35,814 nucleotides of DNA from an uncultured Gammaproteobacteria bacterium (GTDB lineage: Bacteria > Patescibacteriota > Patescibacteriia > Patescibacteriales > JAGXOH01). Shown piece after piece: positions 9,651-35,814 of the stretch. A model generated the notes under the pieces. The model searched no databases. It was given only the letters and a program-made list of their open reading frames with translations, and was not told where the DNA came from. Each line of letters begins with the position of its first letter. Position 1 is the first letter of the stretch. The stretch lies in the NCBI GenBank assembly GCA_964512155.1, contig CAZEHL010000005.1:1-35814 (forward strand). Reading direction: 5' to 3'. The translations under genes were made by a program, and so were the position numbers.

Positions 9651-10964
9651 TCACTAGTGTCCGAGATAATTTTCACCAGAAACTCATTTGAGGATTTTCA
9701 ACCCTCTTTATTTTAAAAACGGTTTGGCTGTCCAAGGATAATAAATCAATTAAATTCCTCCTGATCATCAAAGTTTCTCTGATCATTCTGGTTAGCTCAA
9801 GCAGGGATTTGGAAAATTTAGTCTGAAATTTGATGTAAACAAGTAACAAATAATAGATCATGGCTATCCAGATCTGCGTCATAACCGCATTTTTACCGGT
9901 TCCCAGGAAAGTTTTGATTTTCAAATTCTGTTTTATCCATTTAAAAAATAACTCTATCTGCCACCTATCTTTGTAGATATCAGCAACCTGCTTAGCTGAT
10001 AATTCAAAATTATTTGTTAAATAGACATACTTCTTTTTAGTTTCCTTGTCCCAATATTTAATTCTTCTCAATCTATCGGGGTATTTTTTGTAATGCATAA
10101 CACTGTAATCCCCGAATATCACCATTTCATCGGCTAATATTCCTTTTTCCATTTTTTTGCCCTCATGCTGTCCGACAACAAAGATATTTTGATTGGTTTT
10201 TGCTCTTGAGACGAAAAATAGCCCCTTCTCATTCATTTTCTTCCACTGTTCATAATCAATGTAGGCGCGGTCAAAAGTCAATATACTGCCTTTTTCAAGC
10301 CTGTCTAGGTCTATTTGCTTAAATACGGATACATCTGCGCTTTTACCATCTGTGATATTAACTAACTCCGGAATTGCTGTCCGATTGTTTAGGAGTGTAT
10401 GAATTTTGAGTGCTCCTTTGGTGGTTCTGTATTTGGCCCAGTCGAACATGGACAGGCATAATTGGATTGTGGTGGAGTCGAAACTGTATAAGGGGTTGTT
10501 GAAGCTAAATTTTTCATTGTTCCCGGAAGCCATTTCCCGGCATTGATCCAATAACTGGTAAAACAATTTTTCATAAATTCGATAGTCCCGCCTGGCATTG
10601 GCGTCCGACAGAGTGGATTTGGCTGAAGTTTTCACTCCCAAATGATACCAGCTACCCTCATGCATATCAAAGCCTGTCTCTATTTCTCTTAAACTCTCTT
10701 TGCCCGTGGCTTGGGCAAAAAGCATCAGGATAAATTGATTCCAGGCATTCATTTTTTTAGTGGATTTATCAGCGTTATGTTCTTTTACAAATTGTTCAAA
10801 TTTGTATTTAGGTAGAAAACCTAGTAATTGGTTAAAGATTGTGTTAGTGTATTTATACATAGAAGTCCGAATTTTTAGAGTTAATAATAGTTTCGACACC
10901 TATATTATACCCTAAAATCGGGCTTCTTTTAATTTTTGGTGAAAATTATCTCGGACACTAGTGA
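9651..10964 (-). mobile_element. complete IS4-family-like insertion sequence (1314 bp)
   Basis: Perfect 28-bp terminal inverted repeats: tcactagtgtccgagataattttcacca at 9651-9678 and its reverse complement at 10937-10964. A single transposase ORF fills the element. No clean target-site duplication seen. Confidence 0.85.
9673..10860 (-). CDS. IS4-like DDE transposase (DUF4372-type N-terminus)
   Basis: The N-terminus MYKYTNTIFNQLLGFLPKYKFEQFV...FILMLFAQATGKESLREIE is typical of DUF4372+DDE_Tnp_1 transposases. The ORF track extends to a GTG at 10899; ATG 10860 is preferred. Confidence 0.85.
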   Translation of the reverse strand: MYKYTNTIFNQLLGFLPKYKFEQFVKEHNADKSTKKMNAWNQFILMLFAQATGKESLREIETGFDMHEGSWYHLGVKTSAKSTLSDANARRDYRIYEKLFYQLLDQCREMASGNNEKFSFNNPLYSFDSTTIQLCLSMFDWAKYRTTKGALKIHTLLNNRTAIPELVNITDGKSADVSVFKQIDLDRLEKGSILTFDRAYIDYEQWKKMNEKGLFFVSRAKTNQNIFVVGQHEGKKMEKGILADEMVIFGDYSVMHYKKYPDRLRRIKYWDKETKKKYVYLTNNFELSAKQVADIYKDRWQIELFFKWIKQNLKIKTFLGTGKNAVMTQIWIAMIYYLLLVYIKFQTKFSKSLLELTRMIRETLMIRRNLIDLLSLDSQTVFKIKRVENPQMSFW

Positions 10965-24993: not shown

Positions 24994-25023
24994 AAAAACC
25001 CCGTGAGCATCACGGGGTTTTTT
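24994..25023. terminator. bidirectional intrinsic terminator between the convergent ABC exporter and the DHH-like gene
   Basis: aaaaaccccgtg-agcat-cacggggtttttt: 7-bp GC stem flanked by an A-run and a T-run. Confidence 0.8.
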
Positions 25024-30117: not shown

Positions 30118-32955
30118 TCAATACCAAGGATCCCCCTTTTTATAATAACCGCCGGGGGTCAAAATTCTCGGGGTAACGATCAATTCTCCTTGATATTTCT
30201 TTAATAGATCAAGTATAGCCCTGTAAACACCTATTTCCGCCGATTCCAAACCGGTAGTATGGTATAATTGGAGACTTAAGCCGGACCAATTCCGATTCTT
30301 AATGATGGGAATATAATCCAAAAGGATCCGCATATTTAAACTCAGATCATCTTTCGCGGTTAGATCACCTCTTAGAAATTTTAAGATCTCTTCTACCGAG
30401 TTCCAAGTTCGGCTATAAGCCAGATTCTCTTGATCAGCCGAATTTTCTCTATGCTGGATTTCTCTGTTCCTGATCAGATAACGATCCACGAATTTATCAG
30501 CTTCCATATGGCGGCAAGATACAGTGCCTATATTATACCGAAACAGATCAAGATGATTGTCAGGTCTCTCTAAGGAGGGTAAAGAGAATAAATTAAGAGG
30601 GCCGCCTTGGCTTCCATCTCCATAAGAGATAAAGAGATTCAACTCTTTAGAGGAAGGTAGAGCCCGGATATAATCCCGGATCATCTCCACAAAGACATTG
30701 GCCCGAATTTTACCCAATAAAGAAGCCAATCCGTAAGGAACGCCGATTTTTAACGACTCCCTTAATATCGAATGAGCTTTATCGATCTCCTTCCAGTTAC
30801 CGGCATAGATCCTTTCTTGTTTTTTCCGACTAATATTCTGGTCAACAGAATTCCGAAGCGAAGCGGAAAAGGTAAAGCTTTCCTGATGGAGTTCGGTAGT
30901 CGCTTGTCGGGGCGGTAGGTATTCTTGCTCCCAATGCTTAACTACCACCACTATTCCGCCGGTAACTTCCCGAAGGGGAGATAATAAGGATTCGTTTTTT
31001 ATTTTTTCCTTAAAACCATCCATCTCTTCGGGCCGGACAAAAGGAAGGGTGATGCCTTCCATTTTTCTTTCCCGTTTTAAAGCGGACTCCAATTCTAAGG
31101 AAAGCTCGCCTTCAACATCGGCTATTATCCGATGATTTTGGCTCGCCTCCCTTTCCATAACTTCGCACATTAAAGAGAATTCATGGCCGTAACGCTTCAC
31201 CTCTCTTTTATGGAGTAATTGATAAGCAAACATTACCGCGCTTTCGGAAGCGTTTTGAATGGCGCGATTGGCCCGGGACTCTTCGGATACGTTCCAATAT
31301 TCCTCCGGCACTTCTATTATTTGCAGTTTCTTTTCCTCTTTTCGGGAGGAAAATTGAGCCAAACTCTTAACTTTATACATTCTGTTTTTTATTTCTTCGT
31401 CCAAATAAACATCCATTCGAGCGGGGGCAAAAAATACCTCCACTCCTTTATCCCGAGCTTTTTGAACGAATTTCTCCATTTGTTGCCAATAAGGACAATA
31501 ATAAGGAGAAATATATTCATTGCTTAGAACTAAACATTTGGCTTGGACTCTGCCGCGATCGTTATGAAGTTGTTTTAGGTAACCGACCAACCTGGGTAAT
31601 TCCCGATCCATATTGTGGGGAACAAAAGGTTGGCACAACATCAATATCGGCTCTTCAGCTTTGAACCATCTCTTTTCTCGAAGGTTTTTATGAGAAGGAA
31701 AAGGGAAGCAAAAATCTTGATCACAACTAAGGGTCCACAACCTGTTTTCCTGGGGTTCCAGAAAGCAATGGGCTTTGGCGTTCTCGGTATCTTCCAAAGA
31801 CAATCCCTGATTCATCTCCGCCATAATAGCGTCCCGCAACCGGGTGGCCATAAAAGCGGAGCGTCCGAAATTAAGAGACTCGGCATAAGACAACCTATCC
31901 CCGAAATGATCGGACCCCAAGATCAGAGCTTCCGGCCTGGAAGCATTAAGAAAAGCCCAGACCACTTCTTCCCGAGTCCAAACATTGGTGTAAACCAATT
32001 CGGTTATCACTTCTTTTTTGGCGAATCCCGCTTTTTCCAGCTCCTCAATCCTTTGAATCGCCTTTTCCGGGAGATCCAAAGTCCGAAACCAAAGCTCGAC
32101 CGCCTCGTAATGTTCAATAACTCCTTTATCCGCGCCGGATAAAGAAGTTCCATACTCGGCGGCCAATTCGGTTATCTCCTCGGGAACCGCAACCGGGATC
32201 CGCCATCCTTTTAAGGGATTACCCCGACCGGTGTTATATTCCTGTTTGATCTTGTCCCAATCTTTTTTGGGGGTTATCCTACCGTTCTCATCTTCCCTGA
32301 TATCGCGAGTAAAAGTTAACTTTAGACATCCGCAATAATCACGGCCCCGGGCGAAGGCCTCGCTTAAGAGAATCTTAACCGGATCCCGGGCTGCCACATT
32401 GGGTTGAGGAATAGGAAAAAATTCATCTATTTCCAAACACCCTTCAATAAAACTAAACCGAAAGGCGCCCAAAGCTACCACATAATCCTGGACTTTAAAA
32501 ACAGGGGTACTCCAATCTTGAATAGTGGAACTCCCGGTTTCTTTTTGGCGGTTCCTGATCCGTTGCCAGGCCACTTGGGACCTTGCTTCCAGGTTTTGAT
32601 GATACTCCAGCCATTCGGAGAAAGTATAACCAATATCCAACGGAGCATCCTTTTCCTGCAAGGATACTTCCGCTAAAGGAGCGTCTCCGTTGGCGGAGCG
32701 GGAGATGTCCAAGCAAACGGCCTTACTCTTTATGAAAACGACCGGAACCAAAGTAGATGGCAGATCCGGCCTTTCATGCCGGAGAAGACTGGTGGCTTGG
32801 ATAATATTAATGGGCACCTCCTTGGTGGAGATACCCATAACCTGAAAGCCGTCGATGATCGCGGAACCTTGACTAGATAGAAATTCTCTATAACTCAAGG
32901 GAAACTTTACTTTCAACTGAAGCTGAATTTCTTCCAAGGTGTTTTCTGTAATCAT
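30118..32955 (-). CDS. 945-aa protein: N-terminal SUKH (SMI1/KNR4) domain fused to about 800 aa with no motif recognisable by eye
   Basis: N-terminus LEEIQLQLKVKFPLSYREFLSSQGSAIIDGF...VCLDISRS...YTFSEWLEYH matches the SUKH pattern seen in the three neighbouring small paralogs. GGAGG RBS. 18-nt gaps on both sides. Confidence 0.75.
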   Translation of the reverse strand: MITENTLEEIQLQLKVKFPLSYREFLSSQGSAIIDGFQVMGISTKEVPINIIQATSLLRHERPDLPSTLVPVVFIKSKAVCLDISRSANGDAPLAEVSLQEKDAPLDIGYTFSEWLEYHQNLEARSQVAWQRIRNRQKETGSSTIQDWSTPVFKVQDYVVALGAFRFSFIEGCLEIDEFFPIPQPNVAARDPVKILLSEAFARGRDYCGCLKLTFTRDIREDENGRITPKKDWDKIKQEYNTGRGNPLKGWRIPVAVPEEITELAAEYGTSLSGADKGVIEHYEAVELWFRTLDLPEKAIQRIEELEKAGFAKKEVITELVYTNVWTREEVVWAFLNASRPEALILGSDHFGDRLSYAESLNFGRSAFMATRLRDAIMAEMNQGLSLEDTENAKAHCFLEPQENRLWTLSCDQDFCFPFPSHKNLREKRWFKAEEPILMLCQPFVPHNMDRELPRLVGYLKQLHNDRGRVQAKCLVLSNEYISPYYCPYWQQMEKFVQKARDKGVEVFFAPARMDVYLDEEIKNRMYKVKSLAQFSSRKEEKKLQIIEVPEEYWNVSEESRANRAIQNASESAVMFAYQLLHKREVKRYGHEFSLMCEVMEREASQNHRIIADVEGELSLELESALKRERKMEGITLPFVRPEEMDGFKEKIKNESLLSPLREVTGGIVVVVKHWEQEYLPPRQATTELHQESFTFSASLRNSVDQNISRKKQERIYAGNWKEIDKAHSILRESLKIGVPYGLASLLGKIRANVFVEMIRDYIRALPSSKELNLFISYGDGSQGGPLNLFSLPSLERPDNHLDLFRYNIGTVSCRHMEADKFVDRYLIRNREIQHRENSADQENLAYSRTWNSVEEILKFLRGDLTAKDDLSLNMRILLDYIPIIKNRNWSGLSLQLYHTTGLESAEIGVYRAILDLLKKYQGELIVTPRILTPGGYYKKGDPWY

Positions 32956-33457: not shown

Positions 33458-34255
33458 TTAAGTGTTACTTTTTCTTCTTAATTGTTTAGCCTCTTCTACT
33501 TTTTCGTATAAAGCATCAATTACTTTTTTGTGTTTACTATAACCCCCTAAAAAATCTTTAGTCAGCTTTTTCATTATATTTGGCTGCATTCTTTCCCATT
33601 CTTGTCTATTCTCCTCACCTAACTTTTTGCCTTTTTCATGCATCACACCATAATCTTGTCTTCCGTGCGATTTCATAGTTACGACACCAATATTATCTTT
33701 TTCTTGTTCAATATGGTGCCAAGTTACCTTATCATCCCACGGATTATAAGGGTTTCTGCCGGCTAACAGGTTACCCAGATTTTCAATTGTGGGTTGAACA
33801 GGAGAATAGACTTTGATCTCCGGCCATTCTTCTGTTTCCTTGTTTTTATCTGAATCTTCTTCGTCATCCTGAAAAAACTCCACTTTATCACCAGCATCAT
33901 TAAATCCGGGAGTAAAGAAAGGAGAAGGATCTTCTTCTCTTGAGATCAAGAGAGCATCATTGGGGTTGCTGTTTTTTATCCTCTCTGCCAATCTATCCGC
34001 CTCTTGCTCACTAACATCGCCTCTCTCGTATTCTATTATAACATCATTAATTGGCTTGGCGCCATAAATATCTTTCATTTTTTGCATCTGTCTATCAATT
34101 CGCTCTTTTTCTTGTTGTGGCTCCTTTATGTTTTTGTTGACCTCTTCCCATTTTTCCGCGGTAAGATAACTTTTATCTAAACCGCCGTGCTTACCTTGCC
34201 TCGCTTCCTCGATCTTTCTAAAATCTTCATTAGTCACCTCATTGCCACATCCCAT
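33458..34255 (-). CDS. WHH-type HNH/EndoVII-fold nuclease toxin (no recognisable trafficking domain)
   Basis: C-terminal NPWDDKVTWHHIEQEKDNIGVVTMKSHGRQDYGVMHEKG fits the WHH nuclease signature (WHH plus two downstream His). Start placed at ATG 34255 (AGGAGG 7 nt upstream); the track start 34288 overlaps the -10. Confidence 0.7.
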   Translation of the reverse strand: MGCGNEVTNEDFRKIEEARQGKHGGLDKSYLTAEKWEEVNKNIKEPQQEKERIDRQMQKMKDIYGAKPINDVIIEYERGDVSEQEADRLAERIKNSNPNDALLISREEDPSPFFTPGFNDAGDKVEFFQDDEEDSDKNKETEEWPEIKVYSPVQPTIENLGNLLAGRNPYNPWDDKVTWHHIEQEKDNIGVVTMKSHGRQDYGVMHEKGKKLGEENRQEWERMQPNIMKKLTKDFLGGYSKHKKVIDALYEKVEEAKQLRRKSNT

Positions 34256-34289: not shown

Positions 34290-34318
34290 ATTTAACCGTT
34301 TGTTCTTTTGGTTGTCAA
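34290..34318 (-). promoter_or_regulatory. candidate promoter of the toxin-helicase operon
   Basis: Minus-strand reading: TTGACA (34318-34313), 17-nt spacer, TTAAAT (34295-34290), about 35 nt upstream of ATG 34255. Confidence 0.5.
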
Positions 34319-34443: not shown

Positions 34444-34476
34444 TAAAAAACAACCCCGGTGATATCCGAGGCTGTT
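34444..34476 (-). terminator. intrinsic terminator after the tandem SUKH pair
   Basis: Minus strand: caacagcctcgg-atatca-ccggggttg (bulged, about 9 bp) followed by ttttttatt. Confidence 0.5.
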
Positions 34477-34522: not shown

Positions 34523-35113
34523 TTATGAATTTAAATTATTTCTCCCTTCCTTTTCTTTTTCGTTCGCATCCTTGATCTCTTGGAATTTCCTGAAAAGGTA
34601 ATCCCAGAAATCATATCCTTCCAGCCAGAAGTCTTCCTTTTTGCCGTTGATGTGAGTGATGGTCCAGCTAGGATGATTCTGAAACCATTCTTCCGTAGGA
34701 ATATTGGGATAGGCTTGATCCGGAACACAATAAGAGTCCCAATAGACCACTTGGCCAAATCTTTCTCCTTTGCCAACCACACAGTAATATCCGCCCATGC
34801 CATCCAGATTTACTATTATAAGGTCATCGGGTAGTTCTAGGCCATCTCTTAACTCCAGTGTCATCCCTAGGGCGGACCATAAATACTCTCCAGAATTTAA
34901 TAAAGCATCACTATCTTCCGGAATCACACTACCTAATAAATCCATAGAGGGGATACACCCGTAATTGAGCAGAAATTCCCTGTATTCCGGAGGAGTTTTC
35001 AGGTCCAACTTTTTCTCTATTTCCTGAATTCCGTCCTCGGTCATTGGTTCCCCGAAATCCAGATTTGATTCCCGGGTCCAAGCGTTCATTTTTTGTTTGA
35101 TTTCTTGATTCAT
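34523..35113 (-). CDS. SUKH (SMI1/KNR4) family immunity protein, tandem paralog 1
   Basis: 196 aa. GIQEIEKKLDLKTPPEYREFLLNYGC...LDGMGGYYCVVGKGERFGQVVYWD...EDFWLEGYDFWDYLFRKF. Confidence 0.85.
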   Translation of the reverse strand: MNQEIKQKMNAWTRESNLDFGEPMTEDGIQEIEKKLDLKTPPEYREFLLNYGCIPSMDLLGSVIPEDSDALLNSGEYLWSALGMTLELRDGLELPDDLIIVNLDGMGGYYCVVGKGERFGQVVYWDSYCVPDQAYPNIPTEEWFQNHPSWTITHINGKKEDFWLEGYDFWDYLFRKFQEIKDANEKEKEGRNNLNS

Positions 35114-35116
35114 AAT

Positions 35117-35719
35117 TTAGTCTTTACTGTTTTTATCGCCTTCCTCTTCCTTTTCCTTTTCCTTTTCGTTCGCATCCTTAATCTTCTGGAATTTCCTGAA
35201 TAGATAATCCCAGAAATCATAGCCCCTCAACCAAAAGTCTTCTTTTTTGCTGTTGATGTGGCCGACAGTCCAGTTAGGGTGCCTCTGAAACCAATTCTCT
35301 GTAGGGATATTGGGATAAACCTGATCCGGGACGCAATAAGAGTCCCAATAGACCACTTGGCCAAATCTTTCTCCTTTGCCAACCACACAGTAATATCCGC
35401 CCATGCCATCCAGATTTACTATTATAAGGTCATCGGGTAGTTCTAGGCCATCTCTTAACTCCAGTGTCATCCCTAGGGCGGACCATAAATACTCTCCAGA
35501 ATTTAATAAAGCATCACTATCTTCCGGAATCACACTACCTAATAAATCCATAGAGGGGATACACCCGTAATTGAGCAGAAATTCCCTGTATTCCGGAGGA
35601 GTTTTCAGGTCCAACTTTTTCTCTATTTCCTGAATTCCGTCCTCGGTCATTGGTTCCCCGAAATCCAGATTTAATTCCCGGGTCCAAGCGTTCATTTTTT
35701 GTTTGATCTCTTGGTTCAT
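35117..35719 (-). CDS. SUKH (SMI1/KNR4) family immunity protein, tandem paralog 2
   Basis: Identical to paralog 1 except one residue (L for S at position 15) until position 143 (V for A), then divergent. Start set at ATG 35719 (GGAG RBS) rather than the track start 35767. Confidence 0.85.
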   Translation of the reverse strand: MNQEIKQKMNAWTRELNLDFGEPMTEDGIQEIEKKLDLKTPPEYREFLLNYGCIPSMDLLGSVIPEDSDALLNSGEYLWSALGMTLELRDGLELPDDLIIVNLDGMGGYYCVVGKGERFGQVVYWDSYCVPDQVYPNIPTENWFQRHPNWTVGHINSKKEDFWLRGYDFWDYLFRKFQKIKDANEKEKEKEEEGDKNSKD

Positions 35720-35732
35720 AATTATTCTCCTT

Positions 35733-35814
35733 TTAAGATTGATTGTTTTCTTCCTTAATTGATTCAATAAAGTCCTCTGTCCAATCGCCCAAATGTTGCC
35801 TTAACGCAAACTCA
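35733..35814 (-). CDS. 3' end of a further minus-strand gene running off the window
   Basis: Open frame to the window edge, ending ...EFALRQHLGDWTEDFIESIKEENNQS*. The stop is 13 nt before the next ATG and overlaps its RBS. Confidence 0.4.
   Translation of the reverse strand, partial: EFALRQHLGDWTEDFIESIKEENNQS

Follow-up and report, generated by a model that had tools for sequence, protein, structure and literature searches.

The DNA analysed here, referred to as the window, is a stretch of 35,814 nucleotides (nt) comprising positions 1 to 35,814 of the forward strand of contig CAZEHL010000005.1 (assembly GCA_964512155.1, labelled as an uncultured Gammaproteobacteria bacterium). It carries on its reverse strand an operon in which a large protein, designated here the scaffold, is encoded between toxin and immunity genes on one side and the gene for a large helicase on the other. 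The scaffold open reading frame (ORF) begins with ATG, encodes 945 amino acids (aa) and is bounded exactly by positions 30118 and 32955. The operon extends from position 34255 to 25038 on the reverse strand in the order effector, free SUKH protein of 159 aa, scaffold, helicase and a 442-aa accessory protein, with intergenic gaps of 4-18 nt (Table 1). The scaffold combines an immunity-type SUKH domain at the N-terminus with a conserved body, and the following sections describe this protein and its family, the helicase and effectors encoded with it, and the role in a conflict system that these suggest.

Table 1. Features of the scaffold operon and its borders in the window
Feature	Position	Strand	Basis or remark
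Tandem SUKH paralogues, 196 and 216 aa	34523..35767 (34523-35113, 35117-35767)	-	Pfam; 95% identical (BLASTP)
Terminator-like hairpin	34449-34476		Downstream of the tandem SUKH pair, separating the pair from the effector operon
Promoter-like TTGACA-17 nt-TTAAAT	34290..34318	-	Upstream of the effector gene; consensus match only, such matches not being enriched in the region
Effector/toxin, 265 aa	33458..34255	-	N-terminal module and WHH/LHH-type HNH nuclease domain
Effector N-terminal module, aa 1-50	34106..34255	-	Alignments; Met1 and Cys3 invariant
Free SUKH immunity protein, 159 aa	32974..33453	-	Pfam SMI1_KNR4, 60.3 bits; between effector and scaffold
Scaffold ("BIG"), 945 aa	30118..32955	-	SUKH and large conserved body; fused N-half and C-half
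SUKH (SMI1/KNR4) immunity-type domain, aa 1-125	32581..32955	-	Pfam, profile, Foldseek
Beta-rich domain, aa 148-270	32146..32514	-	Secondary structure of the model, invariant columns; fold not assigned
All-helical domain, aa 278-392	31780..32124	-	Alignment; no family or structure match
C-terminal region, aa 395-945	30121..31773	-	Cap4-like by Foldseek
Partner helicase, 1238 aa	26383..30099	-	Pfam DEAD, Helicase_C, S1
Accessory protein, 442 aa	25038..26366	-	Orthologues (44-66% identity) follow the helicase gene immediately
Bidirectional terminator-like hairpin, 13 bp stem	24994..25022	.	End of the operon, after the 442-aa gene

The scaffold protein and its family

The first ~125 residues of the scaffold are a genuine SUKH domain, resembling B. 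subtilis YobK, the immunity protein of the YobL toxin, both by profile hidden Markov model (HMM) and by fold. Pfam SUKH_5 matches aa 3-91 with 40.3 bits (E 3.3e-10, cut-off 27) and SMI1_KNR4 matches aa 2-117 with 30.6 bits (cut-off 25.4), a profile of the scaffold family finds the YobK crystal structure 2prv at E 8.8e-7, and the AlphaFold model of the scaffold is aligned to the same structure by Foldseek with a probability of 1.0 and a template modelling score (TM-score) of 0.62-0.63 normalised to the target. The SUKH HMM is matched by 28 of the 29 fused members of the family. The SUKH pattern that a first-pass annotation, made from the sequence alone, had seen in the first ~130 residues and in three small neighbouring proteins was thus recovered by Pfam in all four. 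As in the classical pairing of SUKH proteins with HNH toxins of the WHH/LHH type (PMC3113570), the scaffold SUKH domain is linked to a nuclease toxin, since an effector of this type is encoded two genes upstream. Classical SUKH proteins are stand-alone proteins of ~150 aa or tandem repeats, whereas here the domain heads an 820-aa conserved body, is tied to a DEAH helicase and is apparently replaced by TsiV in some relatives. Mean pairwise identity within the family amounts to 45% in the SUKH domain, the lowest of all domains, as compared to 52-59% in the body, which makes SUKH the fastest-evolving domain of the scaffold, as would be expected of a partner-specific binder. Because the fused SUKH domain shares only 26% identity with its nearest small SUKH neighbour, it derives from an old fusion and not from a recent local duplication. 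Three scaffold homologues (P0026 and P0027 in locus L006, P0024 in L004) additionally carry zinc ribbons (CPxCG...CYxCY; Pfam DZR_2) inserted inside or after the SUKH domain, or a zinc ribbon at the N-terminus.

Although initially described as an orphan, the scaffold belongs to a large family. A word-indexed search revealed 28 clusters of full-length homologues with 25-91% identity, those with a named source coming from Atribacteria and Candidate Phyla Radiation (CPR) bacteria (Harrisonbacteria, Nealsonbacteria), and scans of genomes and metagenomes added metagenome-assembled genomes (MAGs) of Thermotogae, Saccharibacteria, Dehalococcoidia and Pirellulales. One Patescibacteria MAG contains two scaffold copies (L013, L018). 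When a profile of residues 135-945, hence leaving out the SUKH domain, was searched against 1.84 billion representative proteins, the wider family was found to comprise 748 clusters at E<=1e-3, of which 478 at E<=1e-10. Many of its members are split into a ~500-aa protein ending at profile position ~395 and a separate ~400-aa protein starting at ~404, and the genes for the two halves lie side by side in Proteobacteria, in Chloroflexi and in Kutzneria albida, an actinomycete in culture; by this comparison the scaffold of the window is an N-half and a C-half joined in one protein. The word-indexed search also gave 105 C-half clusters, all of them annotated as "hypothetical" or unnamed, and no Pfam domain was found in them. 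The architecture, taken at first for a peculiar local fusion, is instead ancient, widespread and also present as two separate genes, and its distribution is sporadic across phyla, multi-copy and apparently shaped by horizontal transfer.

The closest relative of the window locus (L010, CAZPEL010000017.1; 91% protein identity, same gene order) comes from a MAG also labelled "uncultured Gammaproteobacteria"; as the next relatives with a named source are Atribacteria and CPR bacteria and the G+C content of the window is 30-49%, the taxonomic label of this bin may not be trustworthy. In one proteobacterial MAG, a split-form system (L057:1-3942) lies directly downstream of Tn7-like genes (TnsA-like/rve, TniB, TniQ) and may be transposon cargo. 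Next to the system in the Atribacteria loci (L001:12059-16888), genes for a protein of 775 aa and for a helicase of 1621 aa with DEAD, YjiV_N, Helicase_C and MZB domains come after it and may represent a second defence-like module of the same island, and the scaffold locus of L006 adjoins a methyltransferase and HNH pair.

Beyond residue ~130, the scaffold has no match in Pfam, NCBIfam or PADLOC and no hydrophobic segment able to span a membrane, in agreement with the early impression of a body lacking recognisable motifs or transmembrane segments. A Pfam scan at E<=10 of 29 fused and 91 split members likewise revealed no recurrent family except SUKH. Across phyla, this body is colinear and conserved along its entire length, ~40 residues being invariant and many of these polar, and the full-length protein was modelled by AlphaFold with a predicted local distance difference test (pLDDT) of 86.9 and a predicted TM-score (pTM) of 0.82. 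The beta-rich domain that follows SUKH shows the signature D157-Y...R166...L-E175-V-D177-x-F. Recurrent weak Foldseek matches to GNAT-like acyltransferases (E ~0.1; PDB and viral libraries), which we tentatively place, as a guess, at aa 148-270, were rejected as an assignment, as the counterpart of the acetyl-CoA loop is not conserved; the viral structure library otherwise returned only a small phage SUKH-like protein. The adjoining all-helical domain is the most conserved part of the protein (59% mean pairwise identity), with the motif NAPRPEALILGSD and the invariant residues H282, W326, E330, W333, N337, R340, P341, E342, E359, R365, E388 and E391.

The C-terminal region of the scaffold, with the conserved motifs YGDGSQGGP, S-x-R815-H816, N830, Q842-E and TTGLESA-x-x-G-x-YR, has its best and only significant structural match in Cap4, an effector of the cyclic-oligonucleotide-based anti-phage signalling system (CBASS) that joins a DUF4297 nuclease to a SAVED/CARF receptor (6wan, 6wam, 6vm6). 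With the full model, AbCap4 (6wan_F) is found at E 4.1e-5 with a probability of 0.97, Cap4 matches ranging from E 4e-5 to 1e-3 and those of Cap5 and Can2 being weaker; with a sub-model of aa 395-945 (pLDDT 78.8), the same chain is found at E 1.9e-5 with a probability of 0.99 and is aligned over its whole length. EcCap4 is matched at E 0.7 only. A Rossmann-like beta-loop-alpha element of the region, with a conserved Gly-rich loop (TTGLESA), is compatible with nucleotide binding, and the position of TTGLESA-x-x-G-x-YR at a beta-strand-to-helix junction would be compatible with phosphate binding. In contrast to Cap4, the matching domain of the scaffold lacks the D...ExK nuclease motif and contains large helical insertions, and the region is split over two genes in many relatives. 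The C-terminal region may hence be built, or work, like a Cap4-type receptor, and it is not filed here as a SAVED member. Profile and structure searches on the body thus point to no known housekeeping family, Cap4 being the only significant structural match besides YobK.

Helicase partner and interchangeable effectors

Conservation of the gene neighbourhood was assessed by calling ORFs in ~60 loci and labelling them with profiles made from the window proteins. Of 24 non-redundant loci in which the downstream sequence measures 3 kb or more, 23 contain a very large helicase, nearly always as the next gene after the scaffold; of 24 in which the upstream sequence measures 2 kb or more, 23 contain one to three small genes of 170-370 aa encoding effectors that start with Met-Gly-Cys (19 of these 23 being recognised by HMM alone and the rest by a permissive pattern). 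The position of the scaffold gene between toxin and immunity genes and a helicase is therefore not accidental, the first-pass annotation having pointed to its place between an immunity gene and a helicase.

Judged by its sequence, the partner is a helicase of the DEAH/RHA family and of the RNA type. It consists of an N-terminal treble-clef zinc finger, a DEAH/RHA core, a long (~500-aa) unassigned middle part and a C-terminal S1 domain, with motifs I, II, III and VI intact (GTGKS, DEAH, SAT, QRFGRVGR). The core matches the structures of Prp16, Prp2, Prp43, DHX8 and HrpA at E 1e-44 to 1e-36, and the NCBIfam models of HrpA and HrpB match at 6e-52 to 6e-39, far under their equivalog cut-offs (176 vs 723 bits). 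With HrpA/HrpB and the eukaryotic DEAH/RHA helicases Prp43, Prp16 and DHX8 it thus shares the core and the winged-helix/ratchet region (aa 100-680), but it differs from HrpA/HrpB by the zinc finger, the ~500-aa unassigned region, S1/KH domains and the operon link to the scaffold. Across loci, the partner helicase measures 1150-1850 aa and contains S1 with or without KH, the helicases of split-form systems having S1 and KH domains. The 442-aa accessory gene is found only in the clade nearest to the window. Its product has invariant residues H10, D14-x-D16, D56 and D72-H73-H74, resembling DHH motifs I-III, and a C-terminal CxxxCxxC...C cluster. Its assignment as a DHH phosphoesterase was rejected, as no Pfam (E<=10) or PDB match was obtained and hhalign against a genuine DHH protein aligned only 18 residues around DHH with a probability of 1%, leaving a resemblance at the motif level.

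The window effector has its true start at the ATG at 34255, preceded by a perfect AGGAGG Shine-Dalgarno sequence 6 nt ahead, and begins with MGCGNE. Its N-terminal module (N-module) is matched by the corresponding HMM at E 1.2e-19, and the same HMM matches 49 effector ORFs with E values from 2e-24 to 7e-4. This module comprises ~50 residues, is acidic, follows the consensus MGCGNE-x-S/T-x-x-D-D...GK...DPE and occurs on effectors of every catalytic class. Split-form systems are beyond the reach of the HMM, and their upstream gene still starts with MGC (L053, L057, L060 and the Kutzneria locus L056). Met1 and Cys3 are invariant in effectors of ~40 loci across phyla (as MGC, MPC or MGTEC), an arrangement that resembles the eukaryotic dual-acylation motif and has no evident function in these bacteria. 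A profile of the N-module searched against 5.8 billion proteins returned nothing at E 0.01, the profile being too short, and a similarity to UvsW.1 (E 0.003) was below threshold and was not used.

The C-terminal parts of the effectors belong to at least four unrelated classes. The largest carries an HExxH motif and has the look of a zincin-type peptidase, the second an HE motif, and the third an EAD...DFK motif typical of the restriction-endonuclease fold, with weak Pfam matches to PD-(D/E)xK families in one third-class member (NA-iREase1) and in the L057 and L056 effectors (UPF0102, Cas4, NucS). The fourth, of the WHH/LHH-type HNH, includes the window gene; Pfam LHH matches it at E 0.011 and its L009 orthologue at E 0.0025, both under the cut-off, with the HNH cluster and the HH dyad conserved. 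Unrelated C-termini behind a shared N-module are the hallmark of exchangeable effectors that are brought to a constant core. Neither signal peptides nor transmembrane segments were found in 31 effectors and the core proteins, all of which are predicted to be soluble.

Gene order around the effectors varies with their class. In 5 of the 6 loci with HNH-type effectors, one or two small SUKH genes stand between effector and scaffold; peptidase-like effectors often have a small SUKH gene ahead, and a convergent truncated sigma-70-like gene comes after them. Constant N-terminus, variable C-terminal toxin and adjacent small SUKH genes thus make up a polymorphic-toxin syntax. All five effectors of the restriction-endonuclease type abut the scaffold (<=27 nt or overlap) and are not accompanied by a free immunity gene, so that the scaffold SUKH domain is the only candidate neutraliser at these loci. 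In the window, the tandem SUKH pair is probably a transcription unit of its own, and the near-identity of its two members points to a recent duplication. The truncated sigma-70-like family (L020:1859-2581(-), L041:3422-4051(-), L013:6545-7354(-), L004:9028-9882(-) and 9 more), located right after HExxH effectors, is conserved and retains regions 1.2 and 2 and in some members region 3, with region 4 missing (Pfam Sigma70_r2, at most 57 bits); these proteins could be target-mimic immunity proteins or a sign that the HExxH peptidases attack the housekeeping sigma factor. The Met-Gly-Cys effector of one split-form system (L053:2756-3259) contains a QQSHH motif and scores 35.5 bits, over the threshold, with Pfam DUF2380 ("predicted lipoprotein"), a family that may accordingly comprise HNH-like toxin domains.

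Elsewhere the window is ordinary chromosomal sequence, encoding cysteinyl-, methionyl- and prolyl-tRNA synthetases (CysRS, MetRS, ProRS), a histidine kinase, an ATP-binding cassette (ABC) transporter and one transposase, and no tRNA genes were found in it. The transposase, an IS4-type DDE enzyme (DDE_Tnp_1 and DUF4372; 9673-10899(-)), lies among housekeeping genes ~14 kb from the system.

A proposed conflict system and the alternatives

The 945-aa protein is best explained as both scaffold and regulatory subunit in a conserved conflict system that is cytoplasmic, is encoded by several genes and most likely provides defence of the abortive-infection type against phages or other mobile elements, a reading that on comparative grounds stands about an even chance of being correct. 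We infer here all physical interactions, the trigger, the direction of regulation and the role in defence. The SUKH domain would dock the effector and keep it inactive, either by clamping the toxin domain or else by binding the shared N-module, the conserved body would contact the helicase, and the Cap4/SAVED-like C-terminal region may either have a nucleotide or a product of RNA as its ligand or promote oligomerisation. When the helicase meets abnormal (foreign) RNA, an ATP-driven conformational change would free or activate the toxin, or ligand binding by the Cap4-like region would do so. The earlier proposal of a toxin-docking adaptor or sensor has in this way gained comparative support from the apparent TsiV swap, the abutting effectors of the restriction-endonuclease type and the Cap4 likeness, with binding of the toxin or of the helicase only inferred.

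The strongest argument for toxin binding comes from the N-terminal slot of the scaffold family. SUKH occupies the N-terminus of 84 of the 122 relatives that contain the N-half of the body. Among those without SUKH, some have no N-terminal extension and several start with a short module like the effector N-terminus, as in P0149 (MGCNRLTT...), P0173 (MAEWRLFT..DY) and the Viridilinea protein in L058 (MGTFRILTATDY). A further group has an N-terminal region of ~300 aa in which Pfam TsiV is matched in P0100 (E 0.037), P0114 (4.6e-4) and P0125 (2.3e-5), and TsiV is given as a weak match for P0125 in the collection's own pre-computed annotation as well. TsiV is a type VI immunity protein for VRR-NUC nucleases. 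In the TsiV-headed locus L060, the gene order is Met-Gly-Cys effector, N-half, C-half and helicase. Because two unrelated immunity-type domains appear in the same position, this slot would be one that binds toxins, and the SUKH-to-TsiV swap is taken as suggestive rather than firm.

Several observations weigh against such a defence complex or against parts of it. The TsiV matches are all under the Pfam cut-off (best 24.4 vs 25 bits), and the C-terminus of the effector beside the TsiV-headed scaffold could not be assigned to VRR-NUC. About 30% of the relatives lack any immunity-type N-terminal domain, and hence toxin docking cannot be the only role of the body. Concerning the receptor-like region, TM-scores with Cap4 are only 0.21-0.27 with a root-mean-square deviation of ~25 A, no Pfam match to SAVED/CARF was found at E<=10 in the 29 fused and 91 split members, and the internal repeat (aa 430-552 vs 765-945) received an hhalign probability of 0.1%, a weak negative since known SAVED halves are also highly diverged. 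In the loci covered, neither gene calls nor Pfam annotations include a cyclase (CD-NTase, the cGAS/DncV-like nucleotidyltransferase type, or Cas10). As to genomic setting, the window is chromosomal, beside aminoacyl-tRNA synthetase genes, and in a complete CPR genome (L004) the scaffold-helicase pair lies among housekeeping genes. Tandem toxin-immunity cassette arrays (L020, L022, L048) classically indicate polymorphic toxins used between bacteria and not abortive infection. With the known defence components of PADLOC-DB v2, scaffold, effector and 442-aa protein gave no match; the helicase gave marginal DinG/Cas3 P-loop matches only, and one small SUKH protein matches PDC-M40A over 30 aa.

These cassette arrays, together with the conserved N-module, polymorphic C-termini and adjacent immunity genes, fit the syntax of polymorphic toxins (PMC3482391, PMC3113570), and spare duplicated SUKH genes are present in the window. 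The locus could accordingly be read as an inter-bacterial toxin system, in which the Met-Gly-Cys module would be a trafficking signal for non-classical export or delivery, scaffold and helicase would form a chaperone or loader whose SUKH domain holds the toxin until export, and the small SUKH genes would protect against toxin delivered by kin. Such a reading seems unlikely, as no conserved membrane, secretion or phage-particle component was found in the ~60 loci, effectors and core proteins alike lack signal peptides and hydrophobic segments, no role in protein export is known for ATP-dependent RNA helicases that carry S1/KH domains, and the loci of the restriction-endonuclease type have no free immunity gene. 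Still somewhat harder to sustain is a role of the scaffold as cofactor of a helicase specialised for RNA metabolism, much as G-patch proteins activate DEAH helicases in eukaryotes, in an RNA quality-control or repair module whose toxin link would be secondary, for instance in countering RNA or DNA damage from incoming toxins. The HrpA/Prp43-type helicase with its S1/KH RNA-binding domains, the DHH-like motifs of the 442-aa protein that recall nanoRNases, the placement of the pair among translation genes in a CPR genome and the relatives devoid of immunity-type domains (~30%) would all be accommodated by it; a sporadic, multi-copy and apparently horizontal spread, a near-obligate link to polymorphic toxins and the apparent swap of immunity-type domains in the N-terminal slot would not, and the DHH assignment failed the profile test.

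Since large polyimmunity proteins that join SUKH to other immunity domains are known (PMC3482391) and several immunity genes are present at the locus, the scaffold might also be a plain polyvalent protein in which SUKH and further unrecognised immunity domains act against several toxins, with the helicase unconnected. This is highly improbable, as polyimmunity proteins show shuffled domains and the scaffold body is colinear across phyla with its ~40 invariant residues, no second immunity family emerged from the Pfam scan of 29 and 91 members, the helicase accompanies the scaffold in 23 of 24 loci, and bodies devoid of an immunity domain exist as well. Returning to the defence complex, a more ambitious form of it, which we regard as possible and hold only tentatively, is that the SUKH- or TsiV-headed scaffold, its C-half, the DEAH/RHA-S1/KH helicase and Met-Gly-Cys effectors constitute an unrecognised phylum-spanning RNA-sensing immune complex, in which immunity domains would serve as "safety catches" for interchangeable toxins and the effector Cys as a tethering or processing handle recognised by the core.

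Relation to known systems and significance

In Hachiman (HamA/HamB) and PARIS (AriA/AriB), a helicase or ATPase keeps a nuclease inactive until it is triggered. The logic proposed here would be the same, namely an NTPase sensor with a sequestered toxic effector that is released upon sensing; however, no sequence or family relation to these systems exists (PADLOC negative), and the present system differs by its RNA-type DEAH/RHA helicase, its putative sequestration by a borrowed immunity domain and its interchangeable effectors. Polymorphic toxin systems such as contact-dependent inhibition (CDI), Rhs and LXG/WXG (Zhang et al. 2012, PMC3482391) are alike in the constant N-module, variable toxins, adjacent immunity genes and cassette arrays, but the effectors described here are small (170-370 aa), soluble and without a known trafficking domain, and their constant partner is a cytoplasmic helicase complex and not a secretion system. 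The founding SUKH paper never mentions a helicase (PMC3113570), and in the survey of 2012 fusions of SUKH figure solely as polyimmunity proteins (PMC3482391). Full-text searches retrieved no description of a SUKH-helicase system, their coverage being incomplete and an earlier description elsewhere possible. The parts are thus of known kinds (immunity domain, polymorphic toxins, DEAH helicase, receptor-like fold), and it is the combination, the family of the body and the effector N-module that appear undescribed, giving the system a fair chance of deserving to be called a new system class.

If this model holds, the scaffold operon would represent a modular bacterial immune machine, in which a constant helicase-based sensor is combined with interchangeable toxins restrained by borrowed immunity domains. 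A bacterial DEAH/RHA RNA helicase would then join the immune sensors, in parallel to eukaryotic sensors of the DHX type, and the Met-Gly-Cys N-terminus would be a new effector-recruitment module that could be used to find more toxins. Occurrence of the family both in lineages that are hard to study, such as Atribacteria, CPR bacteria and Chloroflexi, and in a cultured actinomycete makes the system testable, and several hundred "hypothetical" clusters without Pfam coverage would receive a name and a function.

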